Below, one piece after another: positions 3,618 through 58,383 of a DNA stretch of 64,000 bases. A model generated the notes under the pieces. The model was not told the origin of the DNA. It worked only from the letters and a program-made list of their open reading frames with translations, and did no database searches. A program made the position numbers and the translations under genes. How positions within the stretch are numbered: the stretch's first letter is position 1; every line of letters starts with the position of its first letter. The stretch is from Escherichia phage pEC-M719-6WT.1, in sequence record OQ845957.1. The stretch is one strand, 5' to 3'.

Positions 3618-3618
3618 A

Positions 3619-4122
3619 TCAAACCTCTACAAATGTTTGCTTCACGTTATCGTATGAGTAGAATTTTATACACTTTTGAGTATTCCAGTCAACCTTTTCT
3701 TTGTAAGAGATACCTTTTGAGATTCTCTTACCAAGAGTTTGATAGATGATATCTCGCAGCTTTCTGTACTCAGGTGCATCATCTAAAACTTTTGCATCTG
3801 TAGTTGCCTTGTAACCATCTATAGAACGTTGATTCCAATCCTGCTGAGTTGGTGACATTGGCTTGTAAAGCTGTGGTAGATGGTTGTAAAGCATGTTACC
3901 TTCTTCTAAAGCAAGCTTCAGTTGGTGAAGATACTCATTCAAACGACCATCCTCTTCAAGCCATTCATACAGAGACTGTAAAGCTCCTAGATTGTTATTG
4001 TAATGTGCAGCACGTTTCACAGAACCTTTGTCAGTACGATAAGGTGACTTTGGCAGACTCAGTATCTGACCTTTCAACACATTAAACCCAAAGACCAAAT
4101 CTATTTTCATGGGAAGAGACAT
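3619..4122 (-). CDS. hypothetical protein
   Basis: 167 aa ORF, tightly packed with neighbours. Confidence 0.3.
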   Translation of the reverse strand: MSLPMKIDLVFGFNVLKGQILSLPKSPYRTDKGSVKRAAHYNNNLGALQSLYEWLEEDGRLNEYLHQLKLALEEGNMLYNHLPQLYKPMSPTQQDWNQRSIDGYKATTDAKVLDDAPEYRKLRDIIYQTLGKRISKGISYKEKVDWNTQKCIKFYSYDNVKQTFVEV

Positions 4123-4466
4123 TTGATATCCTCATTTTTAAATACAAAAGTTGTGTAGTTAGTACCTTCAACATCTAACCAGATAGCAGTAGCATCAACA
4201 CCATCAAGGTTGTTGAAAAGTTCTTTGATGAACGAGTTACGAACATCCTTTGCACAGGTTGTCTCAAGTTTAATGTTTGAGATTGCTGAACCAATTGCCA
4301 TATAGCCTTTGACACGATTCTTCTCAGAATGCTTGATATCACCTTTCTGTAGTTTAGCAATCATCTCTACAAGAATCCCATGCCCCCATACCTTCTCAGC
4401 CTCTGTAGGCTTACTATAAAAACCAATTGCAAAGTTGCCTTTAAAGATTGCATTTTCACGTTTCAT
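4107..4466 (-). CDS. hypothetical protein
   Basis: 119 aa ORF. Confidence 0.3.
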   Translation of the reverse strand: MKRENAIFKGNFAIGFYSKPTEAEKVWGHGILVEMIAKLQKGDIKHSEKNRVKGYMAIGSAISNIKLETTCAKDVRNSFIKELFNNLDGVDATAIWLDVEGTNYTTFVFKNEDIKCLFP

Positions 4467-4467
4467 A

Positions 4468-4767
4468 CTAATCTACCTTACTTAAGTTGAAGTTTAAGCC
4501 AAGTTTATCACAAACACTAATCATGTAGTCAAGAGATACTTTCCCACTACCATTCAGAATGTTTGAGACTCTGGCTTGAGATATTTCACAAATCTTTGCT
4601 ACCTGAATCTGTGAAAGGTTGTTTCTTTTCATGTGGATGTTTAACTTTTCAGAGATGTAAAACTTCATCTCATCAACATCCATTCCTGCTATATAAGCTT
4701 CCATTTCAGCCTCTCTATCTGCCCCCCAATCATCTTGAGGTGCATAAGGGTCAAAGATACTATTCAT
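4468..4767 (-). CDS. HTH (XRE-like) DNA-binding protein
   Basis: C-terminal helix-turn-helix-like segment LSQIQVAKICEISQARVSNILNG. Confidence 0.4.
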   Translation of the reverse strand: MNSIFDPYAPQDDWGADREAEMEAYIAGMDVDEMKFYISEKLNIHMKRNNLSQIQVAKICEISQARVSNILNGSGKVSLDYMISVCDKLGLNFNLSKVD

Positions 4768-4963
4768 CTTTCTTTCTCCGTTTACGAGAAGTGTCGATTA
4801 ACGAATCAAGGTTAGTAGCTCTAACTTGTTCACGAGTACCATTGATGTAGTTATCAAGGGACTCTACAACAGTGTTGAAGTCTTTAGCCCAAACTCTGTA
4901 AATAACTACGCCGTCATCGTCAATAACTTCACCATAGTCTACTCTACAGATACTCTTCTTCAT
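4760..4963 (-). CDS. hypothetical protein
   Basis: 67 aa ORF with basic C-terminus. Confidence 0.25.
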   Translation of the reverse strand: MKKSICRVDYGEVIDDDGVVIYRVWAKDFNTVVESLDNYINGTREQVRATNLDSLIDTSRKRRKKDE

Positions 4964-5340
4964 TGTGGAAGACCCATGCAGTGACGGTTAATGATAAAGT
5001 GTTCAACACCGTCTAAAGCACCCTGAGAAACGTGCTCTTTCACAACTTCAATTTCAGCAATCTGCTCAGGGTTAAGAACGTCAATGTTTTCTGTAACCAT
5101 CATATCAGAAACATCAAGGTAGTACTGCCCCATTGTGTGGTAATTGAAATCAATTATCTTGTCAGTTAATTCATAAACAGTGTCTTGAGAAATTGGCTTG
5201 GTCAATTCTCCAGCTTTAGAAACAACCTTTTTAGCAACCTGACAAGCTTCTACTCTGACGTTGTTGTAATCAATCTTTGGCATATCTGCATAAGCATTGA
5301 GGCTTAGTGCTGCAAAGAGACATAATGTAATCTTTTTCAT
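4960..5340 (-). CDS. secreted/periplasmic protein
   Basis: N-terminal signal peptide MKKITLCLFAALSLNAYA. Confidence 0.4.
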   Translation of the reverse strand: MKKITLCLFAALSLNAYADMPKIDYNNVRVEACQVAKKVVSKAGELTKPISQDTVYELTDKIIDFNYHTMGQYYLDVSDMMVTENIDVLNPEQIAEIEVVKEHVSQGALDGVEHFIINRHCMGLPQ

Positions 5341-5515
5341 AACTTACTCCTATATAATATTTTGTATATCTACGAGTATAAAAATAAGCTATAACACCTG
5401 ACTTGTCAACAGATTTTATAGCTTATTTGGCAGATTTTTTATAAGGCTACTGCCATCCTTCCATACCTTACCACACAAGACCAAACCATGCCGTACTCCA
5501 CTTCACAGTACCAAG

Positions 5516-5731
5516 CATCACTTAAAAATCCTCTTAAAGACCCTTAAGTGATGTAAGTCTCATTTTAATGTAGCTGAGACTAACTACCCATACCATGCCT
5601 TACACCACCGAACCACACCAAACCACACCAAACCATACCAAACCATACCAAACCATACCATACCAAACCAGAGCCTACTATACCATACCGAACCTCACTT
5701 AAAAACCCTCTTAGAAGACTCTTAAGTGATG
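5516..5731. repeat. composite repeat: two ~36-bp palindromic elements (CATCACTTAA-N18-TTAAGTGATG) flanking tandem decamer repeats (CCAAACCATA x5-6)
   Basis: Direct reading of 5516-5553, 5607-5675 and 5695-5731; intergenic. Confidence 0.7.
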
Positions 5732-5795
5732 CTGGTGAGTACCCGTTGGTTTATGCTGCTCAGTATACTCACCAAATTTTCTATGTCAACAACTT

Positions 5796-6896
5796 TTATT
5801 CATAATCTCGAATAACTAACCCAACAGGGAACTGTAAAGAACCCTTACGAGTCATCTTCTGGAACTGAACCGTTAAAGGTTTCCCGATAAACTCTTCAGG
5901 ATGTTCAGCAAGATACTGTTTCTTCTCATGGGTAGTCTTCCATGAAACATCTACAAAGACATTAGGAAGAGTCTCTACAACGAACTTACCATGACCACGC
6001 TTATCAGTCTTCACACCAGTTACTTTAAATTCCTCTGTGTGCATCTTCTTATGTTTAATCAGGAAGTAAGAACGGTGACCACACTCATAGAAAGAATCTG
6101 CTGAAATGGAACGGTACATTGCCCCTTCAAACTTCAGCTTAACCCAATTATCATGGGCTTTGTCAAACTCTTCCCAAGAGTTAACACGTATAGTTTGAAC
6201 AGGTACAACCTTGCAAGCATCGCCAAGTTCAACGATTGGTGAATTATCAATGATTTCACGTCGCTCAGGCCAAGACTTAGTGCTATCACAGATATCATAC
6301 CAGTAGAACTTAAGAAGGTGACGGTCTGGATTGTCAGCATTCTTAATCATTGAAACAATATCTTCCAAATCCCAACCATGAGCATAAATCTCACCATCGA
6401 AGTCTGCAACTTGTGGATGGCATTTAAGCAGTAAAAGTAAGTCTGGAATTAACTCTTCAGGTACGTTGTACACAGTATTTTCACGGGAATAAGCTGTGAA
6501 GTTCACTGAGTCAACATCTCTTGAAATCCTGCAACGAACACCATCAAGTTTTGGTTGAGCGTCAGCAGGGAATTTCAAATACTTTGCATGACTAACCTTG
6601 GAAGCATCATGAGCAAGCTGTACACCTACCTTTTCAGTATTCTGTGCAGACTCTTTTGTGTAAGCATAACCTTTGCGGTCAACTTGCTTCTTGTACTTAG
6701 CAGCAACTTCAAAGAGAGCTTGCTGTTCAGCGTTACGCTCATTCTTTTTACCGATGTTTTTCGGTTCTGCTGTGTACTCTTCAAACATCATCTTGCCATT
6801 CTCTTTACCATAGGTGGTAACAACTTTGTCACCTACAGCAACACATGACCAGACGTTAAAGGAACCATCTTTATTTTGTTTGTACAGAATTGTCAT
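5796..6896 (-). CDS. ATP-dependent DNA ligase
   Basis: 366 aa; adenylation motif KLDGVRC (KxDG). Confidence 0.7.
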   Translation of the reverse strand: MTILYKQNKDGSFNVWSCVAVGDKVVTTYGKENGKMMFEEYTAEPKNIGKKNERNAEQQALFEVAAKYKKQVDRKGYAYTKESAQNTEKVGVQLAHDASKVSHAKYLKFPADAQPKLDGVRCRISRDVDSVNFTAYSRENTVYNVPEELIPDLLLLLKCHPQVADFDGEIYAHGWDLEDIVSMIKNADNPDRHLLKFYWYDICDSTKSWPERREIIDNSPIVELGDACKVVPVQTIRVNSWEEFDKAHDNWVKLKFEGAMYRSISADSFYECGHRSYFLIKHKKMHTEEFKVTGVKTDKRGHGKFVVETLPNVFVDVSWKTTHEKKQYLAEHPEEFIGKPLTVQFQKMTRKGSLQFPVGLVIRDYE

Positions 6897-23619: not shown

Positions 23620-23814
23620 TTGTGGGAAGGTTTCACAGTTGATGCACCGATGATTGTACTAGGTTTCTTCTTTGTGAACCTGTTTATTGATATCAAACAA
23701 GGTGCTTTGTTTGGTGCTATGTTAGTATGGGTAATCTTTGAGATTCTAGAAATCCATCTTGACATTAGCGGAAAACTTAAAAAGTTTGTTGAGAAGATTT
23801 TCAAAAAGAATTAA
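23620..23814 (+). CDS. small membrane protein
   Basis: 64 aa, mostly hydrophobic. Confidence 0.3.
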   Translation: MWEGFTVDAPMIVLGFFFVNLFIDIKQGALFGAMLVWVIFEILEIHLDISGKLKKFVEKIFKKN

Positions 23815-23819
23815 TATAA

Positions 23820-23842
23820 GGGTCTCTTCGGAGACCTTTTTC
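23820..23842 (+). terminator. intrinsic terminator
   Basis: GGTCTC-TTCG-GAGACC hairpin plus TTTTT. Confidence 0.55.
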
Positions 23843-23861
23843 GTATATAAAGGAGCACAAA

Positions 23862-26002
23862 TGGTCAAAGTACAAATTATTAAAAAGAATGGCTCACTTG
23901 AAGAACCAGATATTAAGAAAGTCCTAGCAGCAGTTACAAAATCAGCTAACCGAGTTGGCTATAAAGAACTCCCGTTAGAAGTTGTTCATGCTCTTGAGTC
24001 AGCTTTTATGCGGATTCTTGTAAAGGCTTCTAACCAGAATGCTTTGCTGATTTCTGTAGATGATATTCACAGCATTGTTGAAGGGACTTTAGCAGAAGTT
24101 AATCACGAGATTTATGAATCTTATTCAACCTATCGTAACTACCGTAAAGAGGTTGCACAGAATTGGGATGAACTCTATCAGAAGACTAAAGACACCCTCT
24201 TCTTAGGTGACCGTGAGAACGCTAACTTTGACAGCAGTTTAATCTCTACAAAGGGTTCTATCATTCGTGGATATCTGACTAAAGAAATCTTCAAGCAGTA
24301 TCACTTGACACCAGAAGAACTCGAAGCTATTGAAGCAGGTTTCATCTACATTCATGACCTGAGAGATTTGGTATTTGGTGGTATTAACTGCTGCCTGTTT
24401 GACATTGGTAAAGTCCTGAAAGGTGGCTTTGAAATGTCTGGTATTGAATACTGTGAACCAAAGTCTGTTCTGTCAGCTTTACAGGTTATTGGTGATGTTG
24501 TATTGTCAGCAACTGCACAGCAATTTGGTGGATTTACTTTAGCAGAGATTGATAAGGTGCTTGTACCGTATGCTAAGAAGTCTCTACGCTATCATGCTGA
24601 GAAAGCAGCATCTTACGGTATCCCTAAAGAACATTACCACAATTATGTCATGGAGCAGCTACAGATTGAATTAACTCAAGGTTTTCAGTCACTTGAGATG
24701 AAACTGAATACTGTACCTTGCAGCCGTGGTGACTTTGCATTCACAACTTTAACATTTGGTTTACTTGACTCAGACATGTCTAATGAAGACAACCGACTAC
24801 AATACATGATTGCAAGCACTCTCCTAGATGTTCGTATGAATGGACAAGGTAAGAGCAAGAAGCCTGTTGTATTTCCTAAACTGGTTTATATCTATGACCA
24901 GAAGAGACATGATGAAAATATCTGTCAAGGACACCTGTACAGTAAAGCTATTGAGTGTTGCTCTAAAGCAATGTATCCAGACTTCTTAAGCGTATCTGGT
25001 CATGGTGCTGTAGCAGAAGCTTTTGAGCGTTCTGGCAAGGTAATTTCACCGATGGGTTGCAGAGCGTTTTTATCACCATATCTTAACGAAGATGGTGAAG
25101 AATTTTATGTAGGTCGTGCAAACATTGGTGCAGTATCTTTGAACTTGCCAATGATTTACCAGTATGCTAGAGAGAATGGTTTAGACTTCTGGAGAGAGAT
25201 TGACAAATACCTTGAAATGATTCGCAGTTTTCATAAGAAACGTTATGAGATGATTGCTAACATGCCAGCAAGTTCAAACCCTCTAGCATTCACACAAGGT
25301 GGATTGTACAAAGGGAATAAGAAGCCAACTGATAAGATTGGTTGGGATACTGTGAAATCCTTCACAGCATCTTTCGGTGTAACTGCACTTGATGAGCTTT
25401 CTGTACTGGCTGGAGAAGGTAGACTGCATGAGTCTCAGAAAGTGATTGCACAGCAAGTTCTAGACTACCTGAATGACCGTCTGGCATACTTTAAAGAGCA
25501 AGATGGCTTCTTGTATGCCCTTTATGGTACACCTGCTGAGAGCCTTTGTGGGACGCAATTGAAGCAGTTCCGTAATATGTTTGGTGTTGTGAAAGATGTG
25601 TCTGATAAAGAATACTTCACTAACAGCTTCCATATGAACGTTGCAGCAGATATTACTCCGTATCAGAAGCAAGACTTGGAAGAATCTCTGTTCCATAGCT
25701 GTAATGGTGGTCACATCCAGTACATTCGTCTGGCTAACCCAGAGAACCATAAAGCTATCAGGGCTTGTGTCTCAAGAGGCATGGGTAAAGGATTCTATCA
25801 AGGGGTTAACTTTGACTTAGCAATCTGTGAGAATTGTGGTCATCGCCCTAATTCAGATGTTGAAGAGTGTCCTAAGTGTCATTCACATGATATCTCAGTT
25901 ATCAACCGTGTCTGTGGTTACCTTGGATGGACTAAGATTAAAGGAACCTCAAGAATGAATGATGCAAAAATTGCTGAGATTCGTGACAGAAAATCTATGT
26001 AA
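23862..26002 (+). CDS. nrdD: anaerobic ribonucleoside-triphosphate reductase
   Basis: Start at ATG after AAGGAG RBS; C-terminal Cys cluster (CENCGH...CPKCHSH) and glycyl-radical motif RVCGYLG. Confidence 0.8.
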
Positions 26003-26157: not shown

Positions 26158-26556
26158 ATGTTTAAAATCTCAAAAGCGTTAATGGAAGTGCTGAAAGAAT
26201 GCACGTTAGATGATGGAAAGTGTGAGAAAGAGCATCGTCGTGGTTCAAGCTTTTATCTCACCAGTGAACTCACAATCACTCAAGAGCTAATTGACTCAAT
26301 CAAAGAGGATGAAAACTTAGTAGTGCCTGATTGGTTACTTGATAAAATCATTACCATAACAGGTACTTGGGACGGTGATTGGGGAACTGAGATTTTTGAT
26401 ATCTCATTCTACAGCTACATCCAGAAGATGAATCCTAAGTATGTGGCCTTGATGACTGCTGCGCAAGATAGTAAAATCTTGCAAGACTTCATTTACAAAC
26501 ACTGTCCAGAATATGTTATATCTTACGAAAAGATTGAAGTGGAGGTAGTAGAATGA
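26158..26556 (+). CDS. hypothetical protein
   Basis: 132 aa ORF between nrdD and nrdG. Confidence 0.3.
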   Translation: MFKISKALMEVLKECTLDDGKCEKEHRRGSSFYLTSELTITQELIDSIKEDENLVVPDWLLDKIITITGTWDGDWGTEIFDISFYSYIQKMNPKYVALMTAAQDSKILQDFIYKHCPEYVISYEKIEVEVVE

Positions 26557-27038
26557 ATTTTATGGAAATTCGAGGATTCGATACAGCTAATGGTGAAGGT
26601 GCTCGTGTGAGTATCTTTGTAGCTGGTTGCAAGCATCACTGTGAAGGTTGTTTCAACAAAGAATCTTGGAAATTCAATGCAGGTAAAGAGTTTACTGATT
26701 TTGATATGGCTGATATCTTAGCTATGTTGAAAGATGATGGTATAGAAGGTTTGTCAGTGTTAGGTGGGGAACCTTTAGAAGAACGAAACATTGACACTGT
26801 AGCGTATATCTGCAAGACTGTTAAAGAGCATTATCCAGAGAAATCTATCTGGCTTTGGACAGGTTTCCAGCTTCACCAAAAAATTCACCATGAAGTAATG
26901 GAATATGTTGACGTGGTGATTGATGGTAAGTATGATGCTTCTAAACCAACGAACAAACCGTATCGTGGTTCTGATAACCAAAACCTTTGGAGAAAAGAAT
27001 ATGGCTGGCAAGGCGATTGTCAATGGCGTACAGAGTAG
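26553..27038 (+). CDS. nrdG: anaerobic RNR activating protein (radical SAM)
   Basis: 161 aa; CxxxCxxC cluster (CKHHCEGC). Confidence 0.65.
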   Translation: MNFMEIRGFDTANGEGARVSIFVAGCKHHCEGCFNKESWKFNAGKEFTDFDMADILAMLKDDGIEGLSVLGGEPLEERNIDTVAYICKTVKEHYPEKSIWLWTGFQLHQKIHHEVMEYVDVVIDGKYDASKPTNKPYRGSDNQNLWRKEYGWQGDCQWRTE

Positions 27039-27918: not shown

Positions 27919-27931
27919 TTCGTTATGATTA

Positions 27932-27958
27932 GGGAACTGTAAAAGGTTCCCTTTTTAT
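27932..27958 (+). terminator. intrinsic terminator
   Basis: GGGAAC..GTTCCC hairpin plus TTTTTATTT. Confidence 0.6.
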
Positions 27959-27970: not shown

Positions 27971-28486
27971 ATGTACTTATCTAACTTGAAACGTGCTGCT
28001 GCAATGTCTGTTCTAAGACTTGACTTTGATGAACGTCAAGAGTTCATTGATTCCCATCAGTACGACCCTTCTAATTCTAATCACATGGTTCTTTGGAATC
28101 GTGGGAAGTTTCGTGACAGTTCCCTCTTTGCATACTACCCTCATTATACAATTGACAATCTTTATGAGTACTGTGTTGTCAAGAACACTATTGCAACTCT
28201 TAACAAGCTTTGTCATTATTCTGGCAAGCAAGCCTTTACATTAGGCCACCACAAACCCGTCACAAAGGGTGGTGAACATCATTGCTCTAACTGGTTTATC
28301 CAGACTCAGCTTGATAACCAGAAGCAGGGAGAAACTATTCTGGACACTCCTAAGATGACTTATGAAGAACAAAAGGCTTATCTTAAAAATAATATGCCAC
28401 CAATGCTTGACAAAGAATATGCAACTCTGGCAATATCTCTCTTGTTGAAGTTCGAGACAGTTTATAGGGCAACTTATCATGGCTAA
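27971..28486 (+). CDS. HNH endonuclease-like protein
   Basis: GHHKPVTKGGEHHCSNWFIQTQLDNQKQG resembles HNH motif spacing. Confidence 0.35.
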   Translation: MYLSNLKRAAAMSVLRLDFDERQEFIDSHQYDPSNSNHMVLWNRGKFRDSSLFAYYPHYTIDNLYEYCVVKNTIATLNKLCHYSGKQAFTLGHHKPVTKGGEHHCSNWFIQTQLDNQKQGETILDTPKMTYEEQKAYLKNNMPPMLDKEYATLAISLLLKFETVYRATYHG

Positions 28487-28766
28487 AGAGAAATGGGAAA
28501 TCTTACAATTAATTAGTGATGCTGGCAATGGTTGTGAGATGTATATGATTCGTGGTCATGTACCAGACTCATTAGCTCTTGAGATGCTTGACCATCACAC
28601 AAACGGATTCTACAAAGAACTATGTGAACTTGGTGAACCACGTATCCAACGCACTTGGACAAAACCAGTACCAGATGGCACAGGCAACTGTTCAGTCATC
28701 TATCACATTGTGAATCCACAAAAATGTAAAACAGCTATGGCTGTGACCTTTGTAACTTTTGATTGA
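28479..28766 (+). CDS. hypothetical protein
   Basis: 95 aa ORF. Confidence 0.3.
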   Translation: MAKEKWEILQLISDAGNGCEMYMIRGHVPDSLALEMLDHHTNGFYKELCELGEPRIQRTWTKPVPDGTGNCSVIYHIVNPQKCKTAMAVTFVTFD

Positions 28767-28778: not shown

Positions 28779-29660
28779 ATGAAAACTATTATTAGCGTAC
28801 TGTTGCAATCACAGAAAAAAGGTGCTTACCAAGAAGAGTTCAACATTATCCAGTTCCCGTCTGGAGAAATTGGTGGTAACTTCCCTGAAGACCTTGTAAC
28901 CTATGCTGAAGAGAACGCTTCCCAGATTGAGAACGTAATCTTCACTGTACGGGGTTACGACAAAGACACTCTGTTTGCTTTAGCTCTGGCAAAAGAGGCA
29001 ATCGACAAAATGATTCCTCAGAAAGCAACTATGAAGACTGTCATCTTTGCTTATCTTCCAAATGCTCGATATGACCGTCACATGTTTAAAGGTGATGCAG
29101 CAGCACTGAAAGTGTTTGCTAATCTGGTTAATGCAATGGATTTTGATGCAGTATGTGCTCTGGATGCTCACAGTGACGTTGCAGACAACCTGTTCAAATG
29201 CTTCCAGAACATCCATCAAAAAGATGTTGCAGCACACTATGCCAGTGAGCCTACCATTGATTTCTTGGTAGCACCAGATGCAGGGGCAGCTAAGAAGATT
29301 GCAGAGACCGCTAAAGAGGTTGATAAGCCTTATGTAACAATGGCTAAGGTTCGAGACCTGAAGACTGGTGAGATTACGGGTATGCGTCTCCTTGATGATG
29401 TAGACCTGACTGGTAAAACTGTGCTAATCATTGATGATATCTGTGATGGTGGTCGTACATTCATCGAAGCAGCTAAGTATCTACGTGAAGCTGGAGCAGC
29501 TAAAGTTGAATTGTATGTAACACATGGTATTTTCTCAAAAGGTGTTGAAAACCTGCTTGACAATGGGATTTCACACATCTACACTACAGACTCTTTAGGT
29601 AGTGCAAAAGACCGTGGCATTACTCATTTCGGTCAAGTAACTGTAGCAAACATTGAATAA
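28779..29660 (+). CDS. ribose-phosphate pyrophosphokinase family protein (Prs-like; candidate ADPR-pyrophosphate synthetase)
   Basis: 293 aa; PRPP-binding loop VLIIDDICDGGRT; directly upstream of Nampt-like gene. Confidence 0.7.
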   Translation: MKTIISVLLQSQKKGAYQEEFNIIQFPSGEIGGNFPEDLVTYAEENASQIENVIFTVRGYDKDTLFALALAKEAIDKMIPQKATMKTVIFAYLPNARYDRHMFKGDAAALKVFANLVNAMDFDAVCALDAHSDVADNLFKCFQNIHQKDVAAHYASEPTIDFLVAPDAGAAKKIAETAKEVDKPYVTMAKVRDLKTGEITGMRLLDDVDLTGKTVLIIDDICDGGRTFIEAAKYLREAGAAKVELYVTHGIFSKGVENLLDNGISHIYTTDSLGSAKDRGITHFGQVTVANIE

Positions 29661-29670
29661 AAACTTTAAA

Positions 29671-29694
29671 GGGGCTGCATAGCCCCCACTTTGA
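29671..29694 (+). terminator. hairpin, weak terminator
   Basis: GGGGC-TGCATA-GCCCC hairpin with poor U-tract. Confidence 0.3.
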
Positions 29695-29707
29695 GAGAGA
29701 CAAGAAG

Positions 29708-31534
29708 ATGACTAAATCAATCTACGCAGTTCCAGCAGGTCTTAATGCAGATGCCTACAAAGCAGGTCACGTCTACCAGTATCCAAGTGCTACACAGTAT
29801 TTGATGCTGAACCTTACACCTCGTGGTGATAAGTGGTTTAACAGCCCCTTAGAAGTTGACGGTGTAGTTGCTTTCGGTATTCAACGTTTCGTTAAAGATT
29901 ACTTAGTAGACCATTGGAACGAAACTTTCTTCGAACGTGATAAGAAAGAGGCTGTTGATGAAATCTTGGAAATCATGAATGGTGTTCTTGGTGCAGATGC
30001 TATCAAGCGTCATCATTGGGAAGAACTTCACGACTTGGGTTATCTGCCAGTTGCAGTGTACTCTGTTGAAGAAGGTACAATCGTTCCTATGCGTGTTCCA
30101 ATGATTATCTTCAAAAATACCGTTGAAGGTTTCCATTGGGTAGCTGGTTATCTGGAAGATGCTTTCTCTGCTGAAATCTGGAAAGCTTGTACCATTGCCA
30201 CTATTGCACTGCATTACAAACGTATCTGTAAGTCTTGGGCTGAGAAGACCTGTGACAATGACTTCCATCTTCCTTGGCAGTGTCATGACTTTGCAATGCG
30301 TGGTATGTCTGGCTTCACAGATGATGCTTTCAATGCTGTAGGTCACCTGACCAGCTTTAAAGGCACTGATAGCTTCCCTGCTGTGTATACTGCTAAACGT
30401 GCATATGGTCAGTTCATGACTGTAAGTGATATTGGTAACTCTGTTCCAGCAACTGAACATTCCGTTATGTGTGCAAACATTTCATGGAATATGAAAGACC
30501 TGACAGAAGATAACATTCACTCACAGTACATCATGCAGTCTGATAGCTTGCTGGATGCTAAACGCTGGCGTGGAGAGGTTCAAACCTTTAAGCACCTGCT
30601 GGTAGATGTTTACCCAACTGGTATTGCAAGTGTTGTGTCCGATACTTACAACTTCTGGCGTACAGTTACAGAGATTCTTTCAGAACTCCGTGAAGTAATC
30701 TTGAATCGTGATGGTAAGCTGGTAATCCGTCCAGATTCTGGTGACCCTGTACACATTGTTACTGGTTATCGTGCAATTGAATGGGAAAATGCTAAGAGCA
30801 TGTATTACAAACACATGGCAACCATTTCTCCTGACAATACTTATCTGCTTGATGCAATCTTGAATTGTAACATGACAGATATGGGTTACGGTTTCTCTGC
30901 TTGGCTAATCTCTGAAGGTTATGAGTTAGTTGTTGATGCAGAAGACTTTAACGTTGCCGATACAGTTAACCTGAAAGAGACTTACAAGACTGGTAAAGTT
31001 GTTGTTAAACGTATGCTGACAGCAGAAATTGATGGTGCTATCAAGACTCTGTACAACATCTTTGGAGGCACTGTAAACTCTAAAGGTTACAAAGTTCTTG
31101 ATGAACACATTGGCTTAATCTACGGTGATTCTATCACTCTGGAACGTGCTGAAGAGATTCTTAGCCGTCTTGCTGAAAAGGGCTTTGCAAGTTCTAACGT
31201 TGTCTTTGGTGTTGGTTCATACACTTACCAGTACCTGACTCGTGATACCTTTGCATTCGCTGTTAAAGCAACTCTTGCACAGATGGATGGTGAAGAAATC
31301 ATGCTGGCAAAAGACCCTAAAACTGACAGTGGTCTGAAGAAGTCTGCTTTTGGTGGTGTAGTCCCTATGTGGGATGGTGATAAGCTGGAAGCTGTAGATG
31401 GTTTTGGTTTTGCAGAGTTTGAAAGTGTACTGGATAACCCTCAGTGTGCTCTGAAGCTGGTATTCTGTGACTCTCAGCCATATGGCTACGTTAACCTTTG
31501 TGATGTACGAAATGTTATTGACAGAGAGCTTTAA
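29708..31534 (+). CDS. nicotinamide phosphoribosyltransferase family protein (Nampt/Namat-like)
   Basis: 608 aa; N-terminal DAYKAGHVYQYP and FGVGSYTYQYLTRDTFAFAVKAT match Nampt signature regions. Confidence 0.7.
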   Translation: MTKSIYAVPAGLNADAYKAGHVYQYPSATQYLMLNLTPRGDKWFNSPLEVDGVVAFGIQRFVKDYLVDHWNETFFERDKKEAVDEILEIMNGVLGADAIKRHHWEELHDLGYLPVAVYSVEEGTIVPMRVPMIIFKNTVEGFHWVAGYLEDAFSAEIWKACTIATIALHYKRICKSWAEKTCDNDFHLPWQCHDFAMRGMSGFTDDAFNAVGHLTSFKGTDSFPAVYTAKRAYGQFMTVSDIGNSVPATEHSVMCANISWNMKDLTEDNIHSQYIMQSDSLLDAKRWRGEVQTFKHLLVDVYPTGIASVVSDTYNFWRTVTEILSELREVILNRDGKLVIRPDSGDPVHIVTGYRAIEWENAKSMYYKHMATISPDNTYLLDAILNCNMTDMGYGFSAWLISEGYELVVDAEDFNVADTVNLKETYKTGKVVVKRMLTAEIDGAIKTLYNIFGGTVNSKGYKVLDEHIGLIYGDSITLERAEEILSRLAEKGFASSNVVFGVGSYTYQYLTRDTFAFAVKATLAQMDGEEIMLAKDPKTDSGLKKSAFGGVVPMWDGDKLEAVDGFGFAEFESVLDNPQCALKLVFCDSQPYGYVNLCDVRNVIDREL

Positions 31535-31548
31535 ATAAGTATTATAAG

Positions 31549-31571
31549 AGGCTCCTACTGGAGCCTTTTTA
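31549..31571 (+). terminator. intrinsic terminator
   Basis: GGCTCC-TACT-GGAGCC hairpin plus TTTTT. Confidence 0.6.
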
Positions 31572-32148: not shown

Positions 32149-34524
32149 ATGCGCATGGTAAATGACCACGCAGAAGTAATTAAGAGTTCAACCACGTTAG
32201 AGACTGCTCAAGCATCGATTACCATGACTCCTGAGATGTTTAGTCTTCTGAGTTCTGGTGTATACACACATAAGGAACGTGCTGTAATTCGTGAGCTTTC
32301 CTGTAATGCTGTAGATGCTCATGTAGAAGCTGGAAATCCAGATAAACCATTCAGGGTTCACTTACCAACTCGTTTTGAACCTTACTTTGAAGTACGAGAT
32401 TTTGGGACTGGTTTAACACACGATAAAGTAATGTCTCTGTATCTCAACTACGGAGAATCAACAAAGAATGATTCTAATGATTACATTGGTGCAATGGGTA
32501 TTGGTTCAAAGTCACCCTTTGCAATTGCTCAATCATTCACTGTGTCAAGCTATGTAGATGGTGTTGTAAACAAGTATTCTGTATATCTGGAAAACGGTAT
32601 TCCGAGGGTTACTAAACTGACAACTAACCCTACTGTTGAACCAAACGGATTAGCTGTACGTGTAGCAGTTTCTGACCAACGTATCAGCAAGTTTGCAGAT
32701 GAAGCAAGTAACGTATTCTCTTACTTCAAAGTAAAACCGGAATGTAACATTAAGTATCGTGATATCCTTGCAGAGATGACTTCAATCTCTCGTGAAGCAA
32801 ATGTCTACGATGCTATGAAGTACAAAGAGAACTGGCGTTCAAGCAACAACGTAGTTAACTTTAACGTGGTCATGGGTAATATTGCATACCCTGTTGATGT
32901 ACCAACTTTGTTTGAAGGTAACTATGCAGATGCTGTTCCACAGTTCTTCAGGAATGCAGTAGACCTTGTTAACATCTATATGCCAATTGGTTCAGTAGCT
33001 ATTGCTGCATCTCGTGAAGCACTACAGATGAATGAGGCAACTAAACAGAAGATTATTGATGCTGTTAACCGTATCACAGAGACTATTGTTGCAGACGTTA
33101 TTAAGGCTGTTGCTGATAAGCCAACTTTGCTGGATGCTGCACAAGCTTATAGTGACATGTTTAAAGATTCTCGTGAAATCTTCATGCACGTTCAAAACAA
33201 GCTTGAGTGGAATGGTCAGAACTTAGCAGAACTTGACAGAAAACTTAACAGTATTCGTCGTGGTCAGTTAACTGAAGCAGATGGTTCACCGTCATTTATG
33301 AAGAATGATGCAGGTGATTTCATGCTTGATAAAGATGGTAATAAGATTCCTAACATTGGGAACCTATATGAACCAGTAGCTTATTATAAGTTTAGCAGTC
33401 TTGAGAACCGTATACGTGCAACTTCAGCAACTTATACACAAGACTCTTCAATGTTCAATATCTTCAGTGGTATGAGCAAAGATAAACTGTATAACTACAT
33501 GTTTATGATTAATGACCGTCGAAACAAAAACGGTACTGAGAAGACAACTGGTAAGAATCAGATTATCCGTGGAGCTTGCCGTGACCGTGAACTTGAAGAA
33601 CCTAAGTTCCGTCGCTACAATGGTATAGTTTTCATGTTTAGTTCTGAAGAACAATTGGATGACTTTATCAAGCTTCATATGCTGGATAAGAGCTTGCTTA
33701 ATATTGTCACAATGTCTTCTAAAGAGCACCACTATGTTAAGCGTACCGTTGTACGTGGTGTTGTTAAGCTGTATAAAGCATTCATGGATAGTACACCACG
33801 GATTGCCTATACAGAAGTGAAAGAGAACTTTGATGATATTGAAGAACCTCAATATTACATCAAGGCACAAAGTGATACTGTTGTGGGTGATATCTTCAGT
33901 TGTTCCCCAGAGACAGCAGCAAAACTGACTGCTCAACTTATTGGACAACCTGTGTATGTCTTCCGTAAGGCTAACTGGAAGAAAGTACCTGAAGATTGGA
34001 TTGAAATCAGTGACCAAGTTTTCAAAGATTTTATTGACAGCAGTTATTGGGTTGATTATAATCGCTACCTCACTCACCAGTACATGAGTGGAAGTAAAGG
34101 TACTAGCATTCTTGACTGTAATGTTATCTCAAGAAACTTCACATTTAAGGATAAGAAGATTTCTAAAGGTTACGTGTACAGCAAAGACTTTGAGAAGGTA
34201 ATGTTCCTTGAAGGGAATGAAGAAGCAATTGAGGATGTATTCGGTCGAATCGCCTACACTGCTGCACCTATTGCTTACATGTTTGAGACAAGTGTTTTAA
34301 ATGACATTCGTCGTCACACAAAGAGTGGAAGCAAAATTAACAAGAGTCTAAAGAAAGCTAAGAACCATATGGAGAAGAAACTTGAAGTTTATTTCTCTAA
34401 AAGAAAGTCAAAAAACTTCTTGCTTTCACATCTTGATTGGGGTAAAGTAAGCCCTGTTGAAGTGAGTAACTTCTTAGGTCACCAAGTCCGGTCAATCCCT
34501 TCAGATACAACTGCTTGGGACTAA
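32149..34524 (+). CDS. GHKL-type ATPase protein, rIIA-like
   Basis: 791 aa; Bergerat-fold motifs ELSCNAVDAH, DFGTGLT, GAMGIGSKSPF at N-terminus. Confidence 0.45.
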   Translation: MRMVNDHAEVIKSSTTLETAQASITMTPEMFSLLSSGVYTHKERAVIRELSCNAVDAHVEAGNPDKPFRVHLPTRFEPYFEVRDFGTGLTHDKVMSLYLNYGESTKNDSNDYIGAMGIGSKSPFAIAQSFTVSSYVDGVVNKYSVYLENGIPRVTKLTTNPTVEPNGLAVRVAVSDQRISKFADEASNVFSYFKVKPECNIKYRDILAEMTSISREANVYDAMKYKENWRSSNNVVNFNVVMGNIAYPVDVPTLFEGNYADAVPQFFRNAVDLVNIYMPIGSVAIAASREALQMNEATKQKIIDAVNRITETIVADVIKAVADKPTLLDAAQAYSDMFKDSREIFMHVQNKLEWNGQNLAELDRKLNSIRRGQLTEADGSPSFMKNDAGDFMLDKDGNKIPNIGNLYEPVAYYKFSSLENRIRATSATYTQDSSMFNIFSGMSKDKLYNYMFMINDRRNKNGTEKTTGKNQIIRGACRDRELEEPKFRRYNGIVFMFSSEEQLDDFIKLHMLDKSLLNIVTMSSKEHHYVKRTVVRGVVKLYKAFMDSTPRIAYTEVKENFDDIEEPQYYIKAQSDTVVGDIFSCSPETAAKLTAQLIGQPVYVFRKANWKKVPEDWIEISDQVFKDFIDSSYWVDYNRYLTHQYMSGSKGTSILDCNVISRNFTFKDKKISKGYVYSKDFEKVMFLEGNEEAIEDVFGRIAYTAAPIAYMFETSVLNDIRRHTKSGSKINKSLKKAKNHMEKKLEVYFSKRKSKNFLLSHLDWGKVSPVEVSNFLGHQVRSIPSDTTAWD

Positions 34525-34602
34525 ACAAAAGCTTGACGGGGGCTGAAAAGCCCCTTAGGATACGAAACACAAACTTTTAAACAATAAAGAGAGAGATTTA
34601 AA

Positions 34603-35712
34603 ATGACTACTAAGACTAAAGCACAAATTGATGCAGAAATCTATGCACTGGTTCAGGAAGGTAAACTGACCAAAACCGCCATTGCAATGAAGTATAACAC
34701 TTCTACTCGTTCCGTTGGTCGTGCTGTAGAACGTCACGAAGCAACACTGAAAGGTGCTAAGAAAGCAACTTCCAAGCCAGCTAAACAGACTCTGAAACAG
34801 ATTGCAAAGTCTGCTAAGAAGACGGCTACTAAGCCAGTTGCCAAGGCTGTTAAAGAGGCAGTGAAGAAAGAGCCTGTTAACCAACTGCACGAAGCAATGC
34901 AGAATGGTAACCAGATTGAGTACATGATTACTGGTGATTCTGTTATCATGACTTTCGGTGCAGATTCTGAAATCGTAGAGTCTACCCATCCGAACTACAA
35001 AGAAATCGTGATGGCTGTTGTAGGTGGTGAGTACAAGAAAGCTTTCGAACTGATGAACATTCGTAAGTCTATCGAGAACTTCACTCAGGGTGCAATCACT
35101 ATCAAAGGTGATAACCTGTACTACGGTGCTGTTCAAATGCGCTCCACTCTGGTAGACCGTATTCTGGACATGATGAAAGTTGGTGATGATGGCTTTAAAC
35201 GTCTGGTAGCATTCTTCGAAAAACTGATGGAAAACCCATCCAAAGATTCTGTAGAACAACTTTGGGGTTTTGTGTCTCACCTCGATGTTGAGATTGATGA
35301 AGAAGGTTATATCATCGGTTGGAAGAAAGTTACAACTCGTGGTGGTAAGCTGTTTGACTCCCGTACCTGCAAAGTTCCTAATGATTTGGGTAACGTTGTA
35401 GAGATGCCACGCTGGATGGTTGATAATGACCGTACAGTAACTTGCTCTCAAGGTCTGCACGTTGGTGCTTGGGGTTATGTACGTAGCTTCTCTGGTGATA
35501 CTATCCTGAAAGTTCGTGTACATCCACGAGACGTTGTATCTGTACCAACTGACTATAAAGATATGAAAATGCGAGCTTCCCGTTATGAAGTTGCAGCAAT
35601 CGTGAATGGTCAGCGTCAGGTTGTCAAAGAGTGGGATGGCAAATCTGAAGCACTGCATATTGTTGTAGGTACTGCTGGTGAACTGATTTCTCAGCGTAAA
35701 CGTGAAATCTGA
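34603..35712 (+). CDS. hypothetical protein, possible rIIB-like partner
   Basis: 369 aa directly downstream of GHKL ATPase; assignment by position only. Confidence 0.25.
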   Translation: MTTKTKAQIDAEIYALVQEGKLTKTAIAMKYNTSTRSVGRAVERHEATLKGAKKATSKPAKQTLKQIAKSAKKTATKPVAKAVKEAVKKEPVNQLHEAMQNGNQIEYMITGDSVIMTFGADSEIVESTHPNYKEIVMAVVGGEYKKAFELMNIRKSIENFTQGAITIKGDNLYYGAVQMRSTLVDRILDMMKVGDDGFKRLVAFFEKLMENPSKDSVEQLWGFVSHLDVEIDEEGYIIGWKKVTTRGGKLFDSRTCKVPNDLGNVVEMPRWMVDNDRTVTCSQGLHVGAWGYVRSFSGDTILKVRVHPRDVVSVPTDYKDMKMRASRYEVAAIVNGQRQVVKEWDGKSEALHIVVGTAGELISQRKREI

Positions 35713-39305: not shown

Positions 39306-40088
39306 ATGGGTATTGTAAAAGTCATCAAAGGTGATATCTTCGCAGACTTTGAGAAAGGTAAGTTTGATATCATCGGTCACGGTTGTAACTGTATGAATCT
39401 GATGGGTGCAGGTATTGCTGACAAGATTTCTAAGGGCTACCCAAAAGCCTATGAAACTGATGCTGAAGTCTACCGTGTAGCAGGAGGAAGAGAGCATAAA
39501 CCTTGTCAGAAACTGCTTGGTAAACTCTCTGTAGCACGTCTTAAACAAGGCCGTATTGCTAACCTGTACACTCAGTTGAAGACTGGTAAAGATGCTCGCT
39601 ATGATGCTCTTGAGAGCGCTCTGTTGAGCCTTAACCAGTACTGCAAAGTGAATAGACTGAAGAAAGTTGGGCTTCCAATGATTGGTGCAGGGATTGGTGG
39701 GCTTGACCCGAAAGCTGTTGTGGTGATTATGAATCACATCCTGAAAGATGTTGATGTTTACCTTTACGTGTTTGAAGAGGCAATGTTTAATACTCTGTCA
39801 ACATGGGGTAATCACAGTGAGCCACAATACTTTGCAGGTGTAGCCGTTGTCAACGAAGATGGAGTTACCCTCTTCAGGCATCGCCAGTACAAGGTACATC
39901 GGAGTAACCCTCCGGTTGAGCGAATGTCTCTAAGTAACGCTCAAGTTACCCCGCCGTTGAAAGGTAGTATGCAACGTGCAGTGACATTTGGAAGTGAACC
40001 TGATGTGTACATTCTTGCAGCAAATGAGAAAGATGCTGAAGCAATTATAGACATTTCTAATATCAAGTTCTTAGCTGCAAAGAACTAA
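39306..40088 (+). CDS. macro-domain protein (ADP-ribose binding/processing)
   Basis: N-terminal VIKGDIFADF...FDIIGHGCNCMNLMGAGIADKI matches macro-domain core; C-terminal extension. Confidence 0.6.
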   Translation: MGIVKVIKGDIFADFEKGKFDIIGHGCNCMNLMGAGIADKISKGYPKAYETDAEVYRVAGGREHKPCQKLLGKLSVARLKQGRIANLYTQLKTGKDARYDALESALLSLNQYCKVNRLKKVGLPMIGAGIGGLDPKAVVVIMNHILKDVDVYLYVFEEAMFNTLSTWGNHSEPQYFAGVAVVNEDGVTLFRHRQYKVHRSNPPVERMSLSNAQVTPPLKGSMQRAVTFGSEPDVYILAANEKDAEAIIDISNIKFLAAKN

Positions 40089-46561: not shown

Positions 46562-48089
46562 AACGTCTATCTAAACCCTTCCTAGAATCTTACCAGACAT
46601 TTAGAGCAATAACTCTATAGCTTACTCTATAATCCCTTATCAAATCAACTAAAATATAAGCCCATAACCCCAGAAAGGGGATGGCATTCTAATTGGTATT
46701 GTTACCAATCCCTTAAACGCTCTATAACGCTCTATAACGGCTTATCATCTCAACTTAAGCAATCATATTAACCCGCTCTTAAAAGCCCTTTATAGAGCTT
46801 CCTAGAGCCTTAAAAGAATCTTATAAGGGTGTAAGCTTTATCATCTCGTTAGTCTCTTGTGAATATCTAAACGGGGCTATGAGATAGGACTCTATAGTGG
46901 TTATAAAGTATCGTAAAAGCTAGCCCCCTTAACATTTCTTTAACAAAATCTTAACAATCCCTACATAGTTATGCTTATTAGCAACTTGTTAGCACCTTGT
47001 TAAATCCTTGTTAAGACCATGTTACAACCTTGTTAGACTCTTTGGAGTACCCTTAAAAGCCCCTGTAAAGGGCTATAAAGAGCTATACAGTCAGTTGGGC
47101 TATAGTTACTATGGAGAACCTTAGAAATAGCTGTATAGAGCTATACAGGGCTTTTAAGAGGTATGTTTAGAGAATCACTGAGAGGGATAGGGAGCGATAA
47201 GAGAAGAGATAGTGACCATGTTAATAGACTGTTAAAAAGGTTAAGAACTTATTAGCCACTTGTTAATTATCTTAACAAAATAACTTTTAAATTTAACATG
47301 TTAGCATCTTGTTAGACCCTTGTAAGAACTGTTAAGCTCTTGTTACATCCTTGTTAGTTCTGTTAAGAGACTGTTAAGAACTATCGAGACTTGTTAGAGA
47401 CTTGTTAGAGACTTGTTAGAGTTGTAAAGAAATTGTTAATGATATTTTAAAATTTTGCAAAGGGTATGTTACAAGGCTGTTAAGGGCTACCAAGCAGATA
47501 TACACCCTTTGTAGATATTTTTCAGATTCTCTACAAACCCTAAATAAACACTTGACAACTCTATTTTATAAAAATTTTATAGAACTGAATAACTATCTAT
47601 ACACTATCTTCTATAAAACAGGTAAATACAGGCTTATAAGATACCTTGTTAATACCGTGTTAGACCTTGTAGAATAAGCCTTAGAAGGGAATACCTGTTT
47701 AGTGCTATATAACAGTCTATATAGAGGGTTAGTAGAACCTAGTGAACATCCTATAGAGAGTCACATAGCTTACATAATGGGTTACTGTTAAGTAACACAG
47801 ATAACCTAGAGATTAAGATGGGTATAGGGGCTTCTAAGGGGCTATGAAGAGATGGTTAAGGTGATTGTATAGGTTTGGAAGAGGATTGCTTAGAGGGCTA
47901 TTTAGAAGGGTTATACAGAGAGCTATAGAGACTCACTGTTAAGGGACTAAGATACTATATAGTACTATATAACTATATAGAGAGTAAGGTTAAGTAGGTT
48001 GTTTAGAAGGGCTAGATATTTTATCACATATCATGGTGACCCAAGATGAACGAAGTGAATCCAAATTTTATAAAAATATTTTACTCAAT
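46562..48089. repeat. ORF-free repeat island with phased YTGTTAR motifs, GCTATACAG-type palindromes and a tandem CGCTCTATAA duplication
   Basis: No ORF of 60 aa or more on either strand; tandem 11-bp units at 46985-47040; 12-13 phased units at 47296-47432; bounded by convergent terminators. Confidence 0.75.
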
Positions 48090-48124
48090 AAAAAAGCCCC
48101 TATGAGACAGACTCTATTAGGGGC
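48090..48124 (-). terminator. intrinsic terminator for minus-strand block
   Basis: Hairpin GCCCC..GGGGC with T-run on minus strand (A-run on plus). Confidence 0.5.
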
Positions 48125-48133
48125 TGTATAGTT

Positions 48134-48817
48134 TTACATCACTTCTCGTAACATTACCTGTAGAGAAGTTTTAGTCGTCTGGAAGAAGTGTGTGAATCCA
48201 TTGTGACGTTCTCTTACCTGAAGCATTATCTGGTCACCCTTAATTGGATGTGAACTAATGTGATACTCATTCAGGTTCAAGACTGCACTTCCACCTTCAA
48301 AGATGTGGCTCAGGTACGTAGCATCAATAAACTCTTCTTTATCTGTGACCTTGATACAGATACCTCTGTTAACTCGTTTAGGATTGATATCTTCCATCAC
48401 AAGCATTTGTTGTCCACCAAGAGAAATCATAGTGAACTCTTTACGGTTCTGCTGTTTAACGTACATTTCAAGTTTCTGCAAAGTATCTTTATAGAACGGA
48501 TAAGACTCCTTAACAAAGATACCTTTAAGTTGCTCTTTACCATCTACAAACTCTCTTGAATGTCTCAGTGACATTACAATCTGTTGAAGCTGGTCTCTGC
48601 ATTCCGGTGAAAGATAGTTATCAATATCTTCCAAACTCAGTATCAAGTACTTTCTCTCTAGCTCAAATTGTTTTTCCATATCTATCAAATCCTGAAAACA
48701 TTTCTTAGTGACTTTTGACCACTCTTCAGAAGCAATCTTTTTCTTCCTCTGAAGGGGAATCATATCTTTCAAGTTCATCCAACTCTTCTTGAGAAGGTGA
48801 GCCATAGCTTTCTTCAA
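48134..48817 (-). CDS. hypothetical protein
   Basis: 227 aa ORF. Confidence 0.35.
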   Translation of the reverse strand: MKKAMAHLLKKSWMNLKDMIPLQRKKKIASEEWSKVTKKCFQDLIDMEKQFELERKYLILSLEDIDNYLSPECRDQLQQIVMSLRHSREFVDGKEQLKGIFVKESYPFYKDTLQKLEMYVKQQNRKEFTMISLGGQQMLVMEDINPKRVNRGICIKVTDKEEFIDATYLSHIFEGGSAVLNLNEYHISSHPIKGDQIMLQVRERHNGFTHFFQTTKTSLQVMLREVM

Positions 48818-49013
48818 CGTACAACTTCATAGCGTGGCACACCAAATATATCACCATAATCTCGTATCAAATCTTCTTTAGAAATGATTAAACGATACCC
48901 ACGAAGGTGAGCATAAGATTTGGCATATTGATAGATGACAACTTTTTGGTCTTCTTTCAGATTTAAACTCATTTCCGCTACCTTATAAAGAGGGGCTGTT
49001 ACACCCCTTTAAA

Positions 49014-49250
49014 TCACTCTTCAGTCTTCTTCTCATCAGACTTTTTAGTTTTCTTATCATCTTTCTTAGGCTTCTCTTCAACCTTAGCTTCTGGTTCATT
49101 TTGAGTTGCCTGAATAGCAATGTCCAGAAGTTTTGCCAAGTCTGATTTAATCACCGTAACAGGTTGCTCATTGTAGTAGCTCTTGTCAAGGTGCTCTTTC
49201 AGTTCATTAAGAGAGTTAAAGCCGAATGGCTGGATAGGTGTCTTAATCAT
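49014..49250 (-). CDS. hypothetical protein with Lys/Glu-rich tail
   Basis: 78 aa ORF. Confidence 0.3.
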   Translation of the reverse strand: MIKTPIQPFGFNSLNELKEHLDKSYYNEQPVTVIKSDLAKLLDIAIQATQNEPEAKVEEKPKKDDKKTKKSDEKKTEE

Positions 49251-49324
49251 TCATTACTCCTTATAAGCATCTTTCAAAATTGCCTGATTAATCATCTCTG
49301 CGATTGCATAACGAATACAGATAA

Positions 49325-49831
49325 CTAGAATTTTAGGTTGCATTCTTTACTCACTTCTTCAAATTTCTGTTCATGTTCCAAGGCTTTCTTCCTGTGGAAC
49401 CTCATTCTCAAGTAGGCTGCAATCATACCACCTACAGGAAGCACATACAAGAACCAAATTTCTTCGATTTTGTTTATTGACTGCTTAATAGTCATTTCTT
49501 GACCGTAAAAAGCTGTTATAGCCACTGCACAGACCATGATAAAGAACATTGCCAAGAATACAATCATTCCTGCATAGGCTCTTACGTGCTGTTCTGATAA
49601 AGTCTGCTTGTTCTTTGCATCAATCAGTCCGTTGTAGTCATTTGAAAAGTCCCTGTAGAAAGCTTTCAAGTATTCTCGGCTATAACCTTCAAAACAACCT
49701 GTGCCAAACCAATCATCCCCTCCAAAGTGGGAAATTACACCTGTTTCGCCATTTGCTTTAACAATCTTGATAGAAACGTGGTGCTTAGATTTTGTATGAG
49801 AAATCTGGTCTCTTTCTTCTAACATAATCAT
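49325..49831 (-). CDS. membrane protein (2 predicted TM helices)
   Basis: Hydrophobic segments VFLAMFFIMVCAVAITAF and FLYVLPVGGMIAAYL. Confidence 0.35.
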   Translation of the reverse strand: MIMLEERDQISHTKSKHHVSIKIVKANGETGVISHFGGDDWFGTGCFEGYSREYLKAFYRDFSNDYNGLIDAKNKQTLSEQHVRAYAGMIVFLAMFFIMVCAVAITAFYGQEMTIKQSINKIEEIWFLYVLPVGGMIAAYLRMRFHRKKALEHEQKFEEVSKECNLKF

Positions 49832-57894: not shown

Positions 57895-57971
57895 CTCTGT
57901 TTAGCTCAGTTTGGTAGAGCGTTCCGTTTGGGGCGGTAAGGCCAGAGGTTCAAGTCCTCTAACAGAGACCA
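57895..57971 (+). tRNA. tRNA-Pro (anticodon TGG, tentative)
   Basis: 7-bp acceptor CTCTGTT/AACAGAG, T-arm AGAGG-TTCAAGT-CCTCT, encoded CCA. Confidence 0.55.
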
Positions 57972-57978
57972 AATTAAT

Positions 57979-58053
57979 GTCGTAGAAGGCAAATGGTTAG
58001 CCACCTGACCTTCAATCAGTTGCTCGCGGGTTCGAATCCCGTCTACGACTCCA
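57979..58053 (+). tRNA. tRNA-Glu (anticodon TTC, tentative)
   Basis: Acceptor GTCGTAG/CTACGAC, T-loop TTCGAAT, CCA end. Confidence 0.5.
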
Positions 58054-58138
58054 AATTTGACAGAAGACCAAATACAGCAAACAACTTTTACTTTTCGCGC
58101 ATAGAAAACATAAAAAGCTTGGTCTGGTCATTAAGAAT

Positions 58139-58373: not shown

Positions 58374-58383
58374 AAATTTAAAT

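Follow-up and report, generated by a model that had tools for sequence, protein, structure and literature searches.

Background

The closest described relatives of the gene pair studied here, adps and namat of Escherichia phage pEC-M719-6WT.1, are the phage operons of NAD+ (nicotinamide adenine dinucleotide) reconstitution pathway 1, or NARP1. We analysed the pair within a stretch of 64,000 nucleotides of this phage (sequence record OQ845957.1), referred to below as the window. NARP1 was first found in the subfamily Ounavirinae, when Osterman et al. noticed an operon of a Prs (ribose-phosphate pyrophosphokinase) and a Nampt (nicotinamide phosphoribosyltransferase) homologue in BASEL phages (10.1101/2024.02.11.579819). 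In that study, the Δ79-80 mutant of the Felixounavirus Bas63 (JohannRWettstein) no longer overcame SIR2-HerA or sustained NAD+, the wild-type phage still escaped SIR2-HerA in a ΔpncCΔnadR host, and ADP-ribose pyrophosphate (ADPR-PP) was seen solely in cells with wild-type Bas63 while the defence was active (10.1101/2024.02.11.579819). Independent genome-wide knockouts in Bas63, termed PhageMaP, gave a 10^4- to 10^6-fold cut in plating on Sir2-HerA cells upon deletion of g79 or g80, whereas retron Ec86 and hhe showed weaker effects (10.1101/2024.10.10.617714). The published clade of Adps with an adjacent Namat lists phages mistaenkt, SUSP2 and EcSzw-1/-2, whose Nampt-like proteins are labelled "Adps-associated", and Adps-family genes are paired with Namat in 97% (10.1101/2024.02.11.579819).

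The chemistry was established with purified enzymes of the Bacillus phage SPbetaL1: Adps converts ADP-ribose (ADPR) and ATP to ADPR-PP, with no Prs-type product in the control, and is inactivated by the K162A substitution, while Namat forms NAD+ from ADPR-PP and nicotinamide and favours ADPR-PP over phosphoribosyl pyrophosphate (PRPP) (10.1101/2024.02.11.579819). Lan et al. (PMC12774641) defined in Namat a "selectivity clamp" made of a helix motif (SCH), GS-X-Φ-X-Φ-X-Φ-TRD, and a loop (SCL) whose third residue is Arg, Lys or Tyr and whose fourth residue stacks where the third is Lys or Tyr. Two add-ons to NARP1 are known: Adpp, a Macro-domain phosphatase of ADPR-1''-P that acts against aRES and whose presence makes the system NARP1-AP (10.64898/2026.01.28.702374), and the RyR-domain protein RyDEP. 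NARP2 (Nampt and Nmnat of Vibrio phage KVP40) and the canonical Prs and Nampt (NadV) enzymes belong to the same superfamilies and share the same nicotinamide-ribose coupling chemistry; they prefer PRPP, need an Nmnat and, unlike the window Namat, have no aromatics at clamp positions 3 and 7.

Organisation of the locus and source phage

In the window, adps (28779-29660, + strand) and namat (29708-31534, + strand) lie head to tail, separated by a 47-nt spacer. Both start with ATG; adps encodes a 293-aa protein of the Prs family, a predicted ADP-ribose pyrophosphokinase (ADPR-PP synthetase), and namat a 608-aa protein of the Nampt family, a predicted nicotinamide ADP-ribose transferase. A Prs-family gene followed by a co-oriented Nampt-family gene (PF14572/PF00156, then PF18127 and PF04095) is the architecture by which NARP1 is recognised. 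The two open reading frames (ORFs) lie exactly where the first-pass annotation had placed them, and the three peptide signatures that it quoted are all present in the translations. We are highly confident that the pair is the NARP1 operon of an Ounavirinae/Suspvirus-type coliphage, a reading for which the evidence in the window consists of gene structure, orthology and synteny, the preservation of catalytic and clamp residues, and fold.

In DNA, the window shares 95.6% identity with Escherichia phage mistaenkt, a Suspvirus of the Ounavirinae, and 92-95% with EcSzw-1/-2, EP1 and SUSP2; 203 phage records match the region, nearly all of them Felix O1-like and from Escherichia, Salmonella, Shigella and Citrobacter. 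Judged by these matches, the source phage is a coliphage of the Ounavirinae/Suspvirus type. The gene order is typical of the subfamily (nrdA/B, glutaredoxin, nrdD, nrdG, small ORFs, adps-namat, rIIA, rIIB, PNK, spanins and a tRNA array), and the GC content of the pair, 0.41, is the same as that of the genome around it.

Among the characterised systems, likeness is closest to the NARP1 operon of Bas63, which is likewise a member of the Ounavirinae and encodes gp79 (293 aa) and gp80 (593 aa) in record MZ501086. Bas63 shares with the window the order nrdD, nrdG, small ORFs, Adps-Namat pair, rIIA and rIIB, as well as the clamp residues (DKWFNSPL; GSYTYQY[L/M]TRD). The two differ in that the window is Suspvirus-like, whereas Bas63, in which the phenotypes were measured, is a Felixounavirus. 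The SPbetaL1 system has in common with the window the two-gene architecture, the catalytic lysine of Adps, the catalytic core of Namat and the SCH motif; its gene pair abuts, with coordinates sharing one base, in contrast to the spacer with a hairpin found here. In the NARP1-AP operon of Vibrio phage Gary (Adps-Adpp-Namat; 10.64898/2026.01.28.702374), Adps and Namat are 41% and 37% identical, respectively, to those of the window. By sequence and synteny, the pair is orthologous to the operon in which NARP1 was discovered, and as such already known.

The Adps protein

The Adps translation carries the PRPP-binding loop TVLIIDDICDGGRT at residues 214-227 and matches PF00156 (3.2e-14), PF14572 (3.6e-10) and PHROG 619, "ribose-phosphate pyrophosphokinase" (1.2e-97). 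It is 97.6% identical to the Adps of mistaenkt and, over 293/293 aa, 77% identical to Bas63 gp79. Bit scores fall from 485 with the Bas63 protein through 132 with that of Gary and 97 with that of SPbetaL1 to 62 with E. coli Prs. Among the Prs models, only the generic TIGR01251 subfamily model clears its cutoff, and every Prs equivalog hidden Markov model (HMM) stays far below (for example, 101 bits versus 297 required). An alignment of the window, SPbetaL1, Bas63, mistaenkt and Gary proteins, made with MAFFT, equates the essential SPbetaL1 lysine, K162, with K190 in the window, Bas63 and mistaenkt. By these identities, bit scores and HMM results, and with the mistaenkt protein listed in the published clade, the Prs-like protein of the window groups with phage Adps and not with housekeeping Prs.

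The Namat protein and its selectivity clamp

Namat contains DAYKAGHVYQYP at residues 15-26 and FGVGSYTYQYLTRDTFAFAVKAT at residues 500-522, and matches PF04095 (1.5e-31), PF18127 (1.1e-5), PHROG 448 (2.2e-195) and NCBIfam NF006629 (8.4e-140). The assignment of the two proteins to the Prs and Nampt families, as proposed in the first-pass annotation, is therefore borne out by Pfam, PHROG and NCBIfam matches far beyond chance. The protein is 97.5% identical to mistaenkt Namat and 75% identical to Bas63 gp80 over its full length. Its top match in the PDB is SPbetaL1 Namat (9W5W/9W5X, 423 bits), followed by H. ducreyi NadV (HdNadV; 337), Xanthomonas (Xcc) Nampt (176) and mammalian NAMPT (141), and its AlphaFold2 (AF2) model, with a predicted local distance difference test (pLDDT) of 92.9, superposes on 9W5X with a template-modelling (TM) score of 0.94. 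SPbetaL1 Namat is thus its best PDB match in structure as well as in sequence.

All residues that contact nicotinamide, nicotinamide mononucleotide (NMN) or the AMP phosphate in 9W5W are kept in the window protein. Its core comprises D15, Y17, F195, R198, D221, A248, R341, D343, G473, D474, G503, S504, T511, R512 and D513, equivalent to D13, Y15, F189, R192, D215, A242, R306, D308, G360, D361, G390, S391, T398, R399 and D400 of SPbetaL1, and the catalytic histidine is H251, inside PATEHSVM.

Since raw similarity is less decisive (423 bits with SPbetaL1 Namat versus 337 with HdNadV), the clamp motif matters. The SCH motif, GSYTYQYLTRD, occupies residues 503-513 (31214-31246, + strand), with Y505 and Y509 (F392 and Y396 in SPbetaL1) as the predicted adenine-stacking aromatics. 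Canonical Nampts diverge at these positions, HdNadV having GAQTYQRNTRD and Xcc Nampt GGALLQKVDRD, both without aromatics at positions 3 and 7. The SCL, GDKWFNSP, lies at residues 40-47 (29825-29848, + strand); its first four residues, G40-D41-K42-W43, follow the published rule, with Lys in third and an aromatic in fourth place, and its DKWFNSP core is shared with Bas63 (SDKWFNSP). The SPbetaL1 loop stacks via Arg40, where the window has Lys-Trp. In a published AlphaFold3 (AF3) model of Bas63 Namat, the fourth SCL residue is described as stacking on the adenine, and by analogy with this model W43 would do so in the window protein.

Insertions in Namat

The first-pass annotation had called Namat unusually long and suspected an extra domain. 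The 608 aa are real, but this length is ordinary in the lineage, and the approximately 110 residues by which the protein exceeds SPbetaL1 Namat form two internal insertions, with no fused terminal domain. Insertion 1 (30479-30574, + strand; residues ~258-289) is modelled as helices and comes directly after the PATEHSVM segment; insertion 2 (30767-31033, + strand; residues ~354-442) forms an α/β subdomain just past the RPDSGDP strand. Both are found in Bas63 Namat, in which insertion 1 is 15 aa shorter (593 versus 608 aa in total). Phages of Yersinia, Pectobacterium, Salmonella and other hosts encode some 30 further long forms, a diverse set of homologues 573-614 aa in length, in which both insertions recur. 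Both are missing from SPbetaL1 Namat (491 aa) and from enterobacterial chromosomal homologues of ~496 aa, while the Namat of Vibrio phage Gary has a shorter insertion at the site of insertion 2. Among the long forms, insertion 1 varies in length: in the aligned segment, Felixounavirus proteins have 24 aa and those of Suspvirus types 35-38 aa. The subdomain formed by insertion 2 is confidently modelled by AF2, and no structural relative of it was detectable. Positioned beside the ribose-phosphate site of Namat, this lineage-specific subdomain may dock Adps to pass on the labile ADPR-PP, or it may regulate. The SPbetaL1 Namat, which has the linker DPEAKDELVRK in its place, shows no binding to Adps.

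Predicted pathway and alternative explanations

According to the pathway that we propose, host defences such as SIR2-HerA, Thoeris, DSR1/2 and SEFIR would cleave NAD+ to ADP-ribose and nicotinamide; Adps (28779-29660) would then pyrophosphorylate the 1'' position of ADP-ribose with ATP, giving ADPR-PP, and Namat (29708-31534) would swap the pyrophosphate for nicotinamide, yielding NAD+ directly, with no need for a host NMN adenylyltransferase. The preference of Namat for ADPR-PP over PRPP would come from the adenine clamp at the pocket mouth, formed by K42-W43 of the β1-β2 loop and Y505/Y509 of GSYTYQYLTRD. Reconstitution of NAD+ by an Adps and a Namat is what the first-pass annotation had put forward, and it is upheld by orthology and synteny with Bas63, by the listing of relatives in the published clade and by the Namat clamp motif.

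This reading has to be set against the one conveyed by the public annotations, canonical salvage, in which a true Prs would make PRPP, a true Nampt would make NMN from it, and host NadR or PncC would lead on to NAD+. The Pfam, NCBIfam and GenBank names are those of Prs and of Nampt or nicotinate phosphoribosyltransferase (NAPRTase), and SPbetaL1 Namat does keep an NMN-forming activity with PRPP in vitro. Yet Bas63 overcomes SIR2-HerA in the ΔpncCΔnadR host, accumulation of ADPR-PP depends on the wild-type operon, and the purified SPbetaL1 homologue of Adps makes ADPR-PP and no Prs-type product; in the window itself, Namat has the adenine clamp, which is absent from HdNadV and Xcc Nampt, and all Prs equivalog HMMs fail. 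Canonical salvage is largely refuted for the Bas63 orthologue, and we consider it highly improbable for the window pair. The same evidence tells against a general supply of nucleotide precursors, whereby a Prs-like enzyme would raise PRPP for phage DNA synthesis and defence evasion would be incidental. The site of the pair in a nucleotide-metabolism region (nrdAB, nrdDG, thyA, frd) would suit such a role, but the 97% pairing of Adps-family genes with Namat and the anti-defence functions of the flanking genes in Bas63 (gp77; rIIA/rIIB versus QatABCD) do not, and we give this explanation very little credence. A Nampt-family protein would also be expected in a pathway of the NARP2 type, in which Nampt would work with an Nmnat from another part of the phage genome and NAD+ would be made from PRPP. 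The Nampts of NARP2, however, form a separate clade without Adps association, whereas the window gene adjoins adps. The first-pass annotation had seen no NMN adenylyltransferase (HxGH), and no Nmnat/NadR-type gene is present in the annotation of the closest relative over the span of the window, a search that did not extend to scanning each window ORF with HMMs; this agrees with published work, in which NARP1 and NARP2 were never found together in one phage. A NARP2-type pathway can be set aside almost entirely.

Several points nonetheless weigh against assigning the pair to NARP1: (i) the in vitro chemistry and the crystal structure are those of the SPbetaL1 enzymes, whose identity to the window proteins is no more than ~35% for Adps and ~39% for Namat, (ii) the evidence for activity comes from orthologues and not from these exact proteins, whose own NARP1 activities we infer from those orthologues, (iii) as SPbetaL1 Namat makes NMN from PRPP, the window Namat may have some Nampt-like side activity, (iv) the third Φ of its clamp motif is Leu, where the published motif has "mainly Asn/Val" (PMC12774641), and (v) neither Namat insertion has an assigned role.

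Transcription signals and neighbouring genes

The same Shine-Dalgarno-like element, TTGAGAGAGA, precedes both adps and namat. The spacer between them contains a GC-rich hairpin, GGGGCU-GCAU-AGCCCC (29671-29686, + strand; fold energy -12.2 kcal/mol, z = -2.8), whose stem is identical in the window, mistaenkt and Bas63 and whose loop differs among the three. The hairpin lacks a U-tract, received no terminator call, and is perhaps involved in mRNA stabilisation or partial attenuation. An intrinsic-terminator-like hairpin with a 10-bp stem and a T run follows at 31546-31569 (+ strand), 12 nt past the namat stop codon, and another terminator-like hairpin, at 27931-27952, precedes two small ORFs (27971-28766, + strand) of 171 aa (PHROG 3500) and 95 aa (PHROG 4726), which are context and stand outside the enzymatic pathway. 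Given the positions of these two hairpins, the transcription unit may take in both small ORFs, which are possibly co-transcribed with adps-namat.

The 171-aa ORF (27971-28486, + strand) is 80% identical to Bas63 gp77, a protein that reportedly counters retron Ec67 and has been called GIY-YIG (PhageMaP, 10.1101/2024.10.10.617714). In the window, however, the sole nuclease-type match of this ORF is a weak one of HNH-like character (PHROG 2214, E 5e-5), and its sequence shows an HH...GG...N pattern. Downstream of namat come rIIA (791 aa, with a HATPase_c_3 match) and rIIB (369 aa) at 32149-35712 (+ strand), the Bas63 orthologues of which, g84 and g85, reportedly counter QatABCD (10.1101/2024.10.10.617714). 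With the gp77-like gene, NARP1 and rIIA/B together, the segment 27971-35712 looks, by analogy with Bas63, like an anti-defence cluster.

The nucleotide-metabolism neighbours upstream of the pair are NrdD (23759-26002, + strand) and NrdG (26553-27038), and the annotation of the closest relative adds further nucleotide-metabolism genes. The window nrdD is one unbroken ORF, as opposed to Bas63 nrdD (46630-49516), which is annotated as a two-piece join split by a homing-endonuclease gene. The tRNA array at 57895-63554 (+ strand) holds 24 tRNA genes, in agreement with the 23 that the mistaenkt record gives for the corresponding stretch.

Candidate accessory genes

No Macro or RyR domain was found in the ORFs flanking adps-namat, so that the adjacency that marks NARP1-AP is missing here. 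A candidate accessory gene lies 7.8 kb downstream of namat (39306-40088, + strand); it encodes a 260-aa Macro-domain protein that is a full-length homologue of Adpp and is found with Gary Adpp both by tblastn (E 2e-14) and by BLASTP (1e-16 across the full Adpp length). The protein matches the Macro domain PF01661 (5.8e-8) and, like Gary Adpp, PHROG 335, shares with the latter its main PDB matches, and agrees with nine catalogued Adpps in 10/10 of their invariant columns. It differs from Gary Adpp, which is 158 aa long and encoded inside the operon, in being unlinked and in carrying a C-terminal extension of ~105 aa. Its Bas63 orthologue is gp95 (69% identical), and in relatives the protein carries the annotation "putative phosphatase". 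Table S1 of the aRES paper lists operon-adjacent Macro genes only, and none of the Ounavirinae phage names that we tried appears in the supplements of that paper, Table S1 included (10.64898/2026.01.28.702374).

PHROG 335 is very widespread (2,857 phage records, T-even phages included), which makes the link of this ORF to NARP1 a hypothetical one. That phages of the Ounavirinae type run an extended NARP1, with the unlinked Macro protein acting as Adpp in trans, a dedicated role for Namat insertion 2, or both, is a tentative proposal that we regard as rather unlikely. If true, the Macro protein would turn the ADPR-1''-phosphate produced by aRES-type RES NAD+ phosphorylases into ADPR for Adps, and such phages would resist aRES despite their absence from the NARP1-AP catalogue.

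A related chromosomal gene pair and significance

A pair of the same kind occurs on the chromosome of Klebsiella michiganensis (GCA_023685665.1, positions 3211-6491), where an Adps-like gene is followed by a Namat-type gene with the clamp GSFTYQYNTRD. The Klebsiella Adps-like protein is 49% identical to the window Adps, as against 28% to E. coli Prs, and the pair adjoins a divergent gene for an NrtR-type regulator (Nudix and WHD_NrtR). NrtR responds to ADP-ribose; "prs-nadV" operons under its control may therefore be ADPR-induced recycling pathways of the NARP1 type. NrtR is named in neither of the NARP1 papers.

Overall, the analysis adds no new biology to NARP1; it confirms that the pathway is recognisable from motifs by a reading of the sequence alone. 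Public records still describe such proteins as "ribose-phosphate pyrophosphokinase" and "nicotinamide/nicotinate phosphoribosyltransferase"; a simple rule that combines the clamp motif with adjacency to adps would allow these records to be relabelled. The locus and its relatives further provide modest, testable leads, namely the unlinked Adpp homologue, the subdomain formed by Namat insertion 2 and the NrtR-linked pair of Klebsiella.

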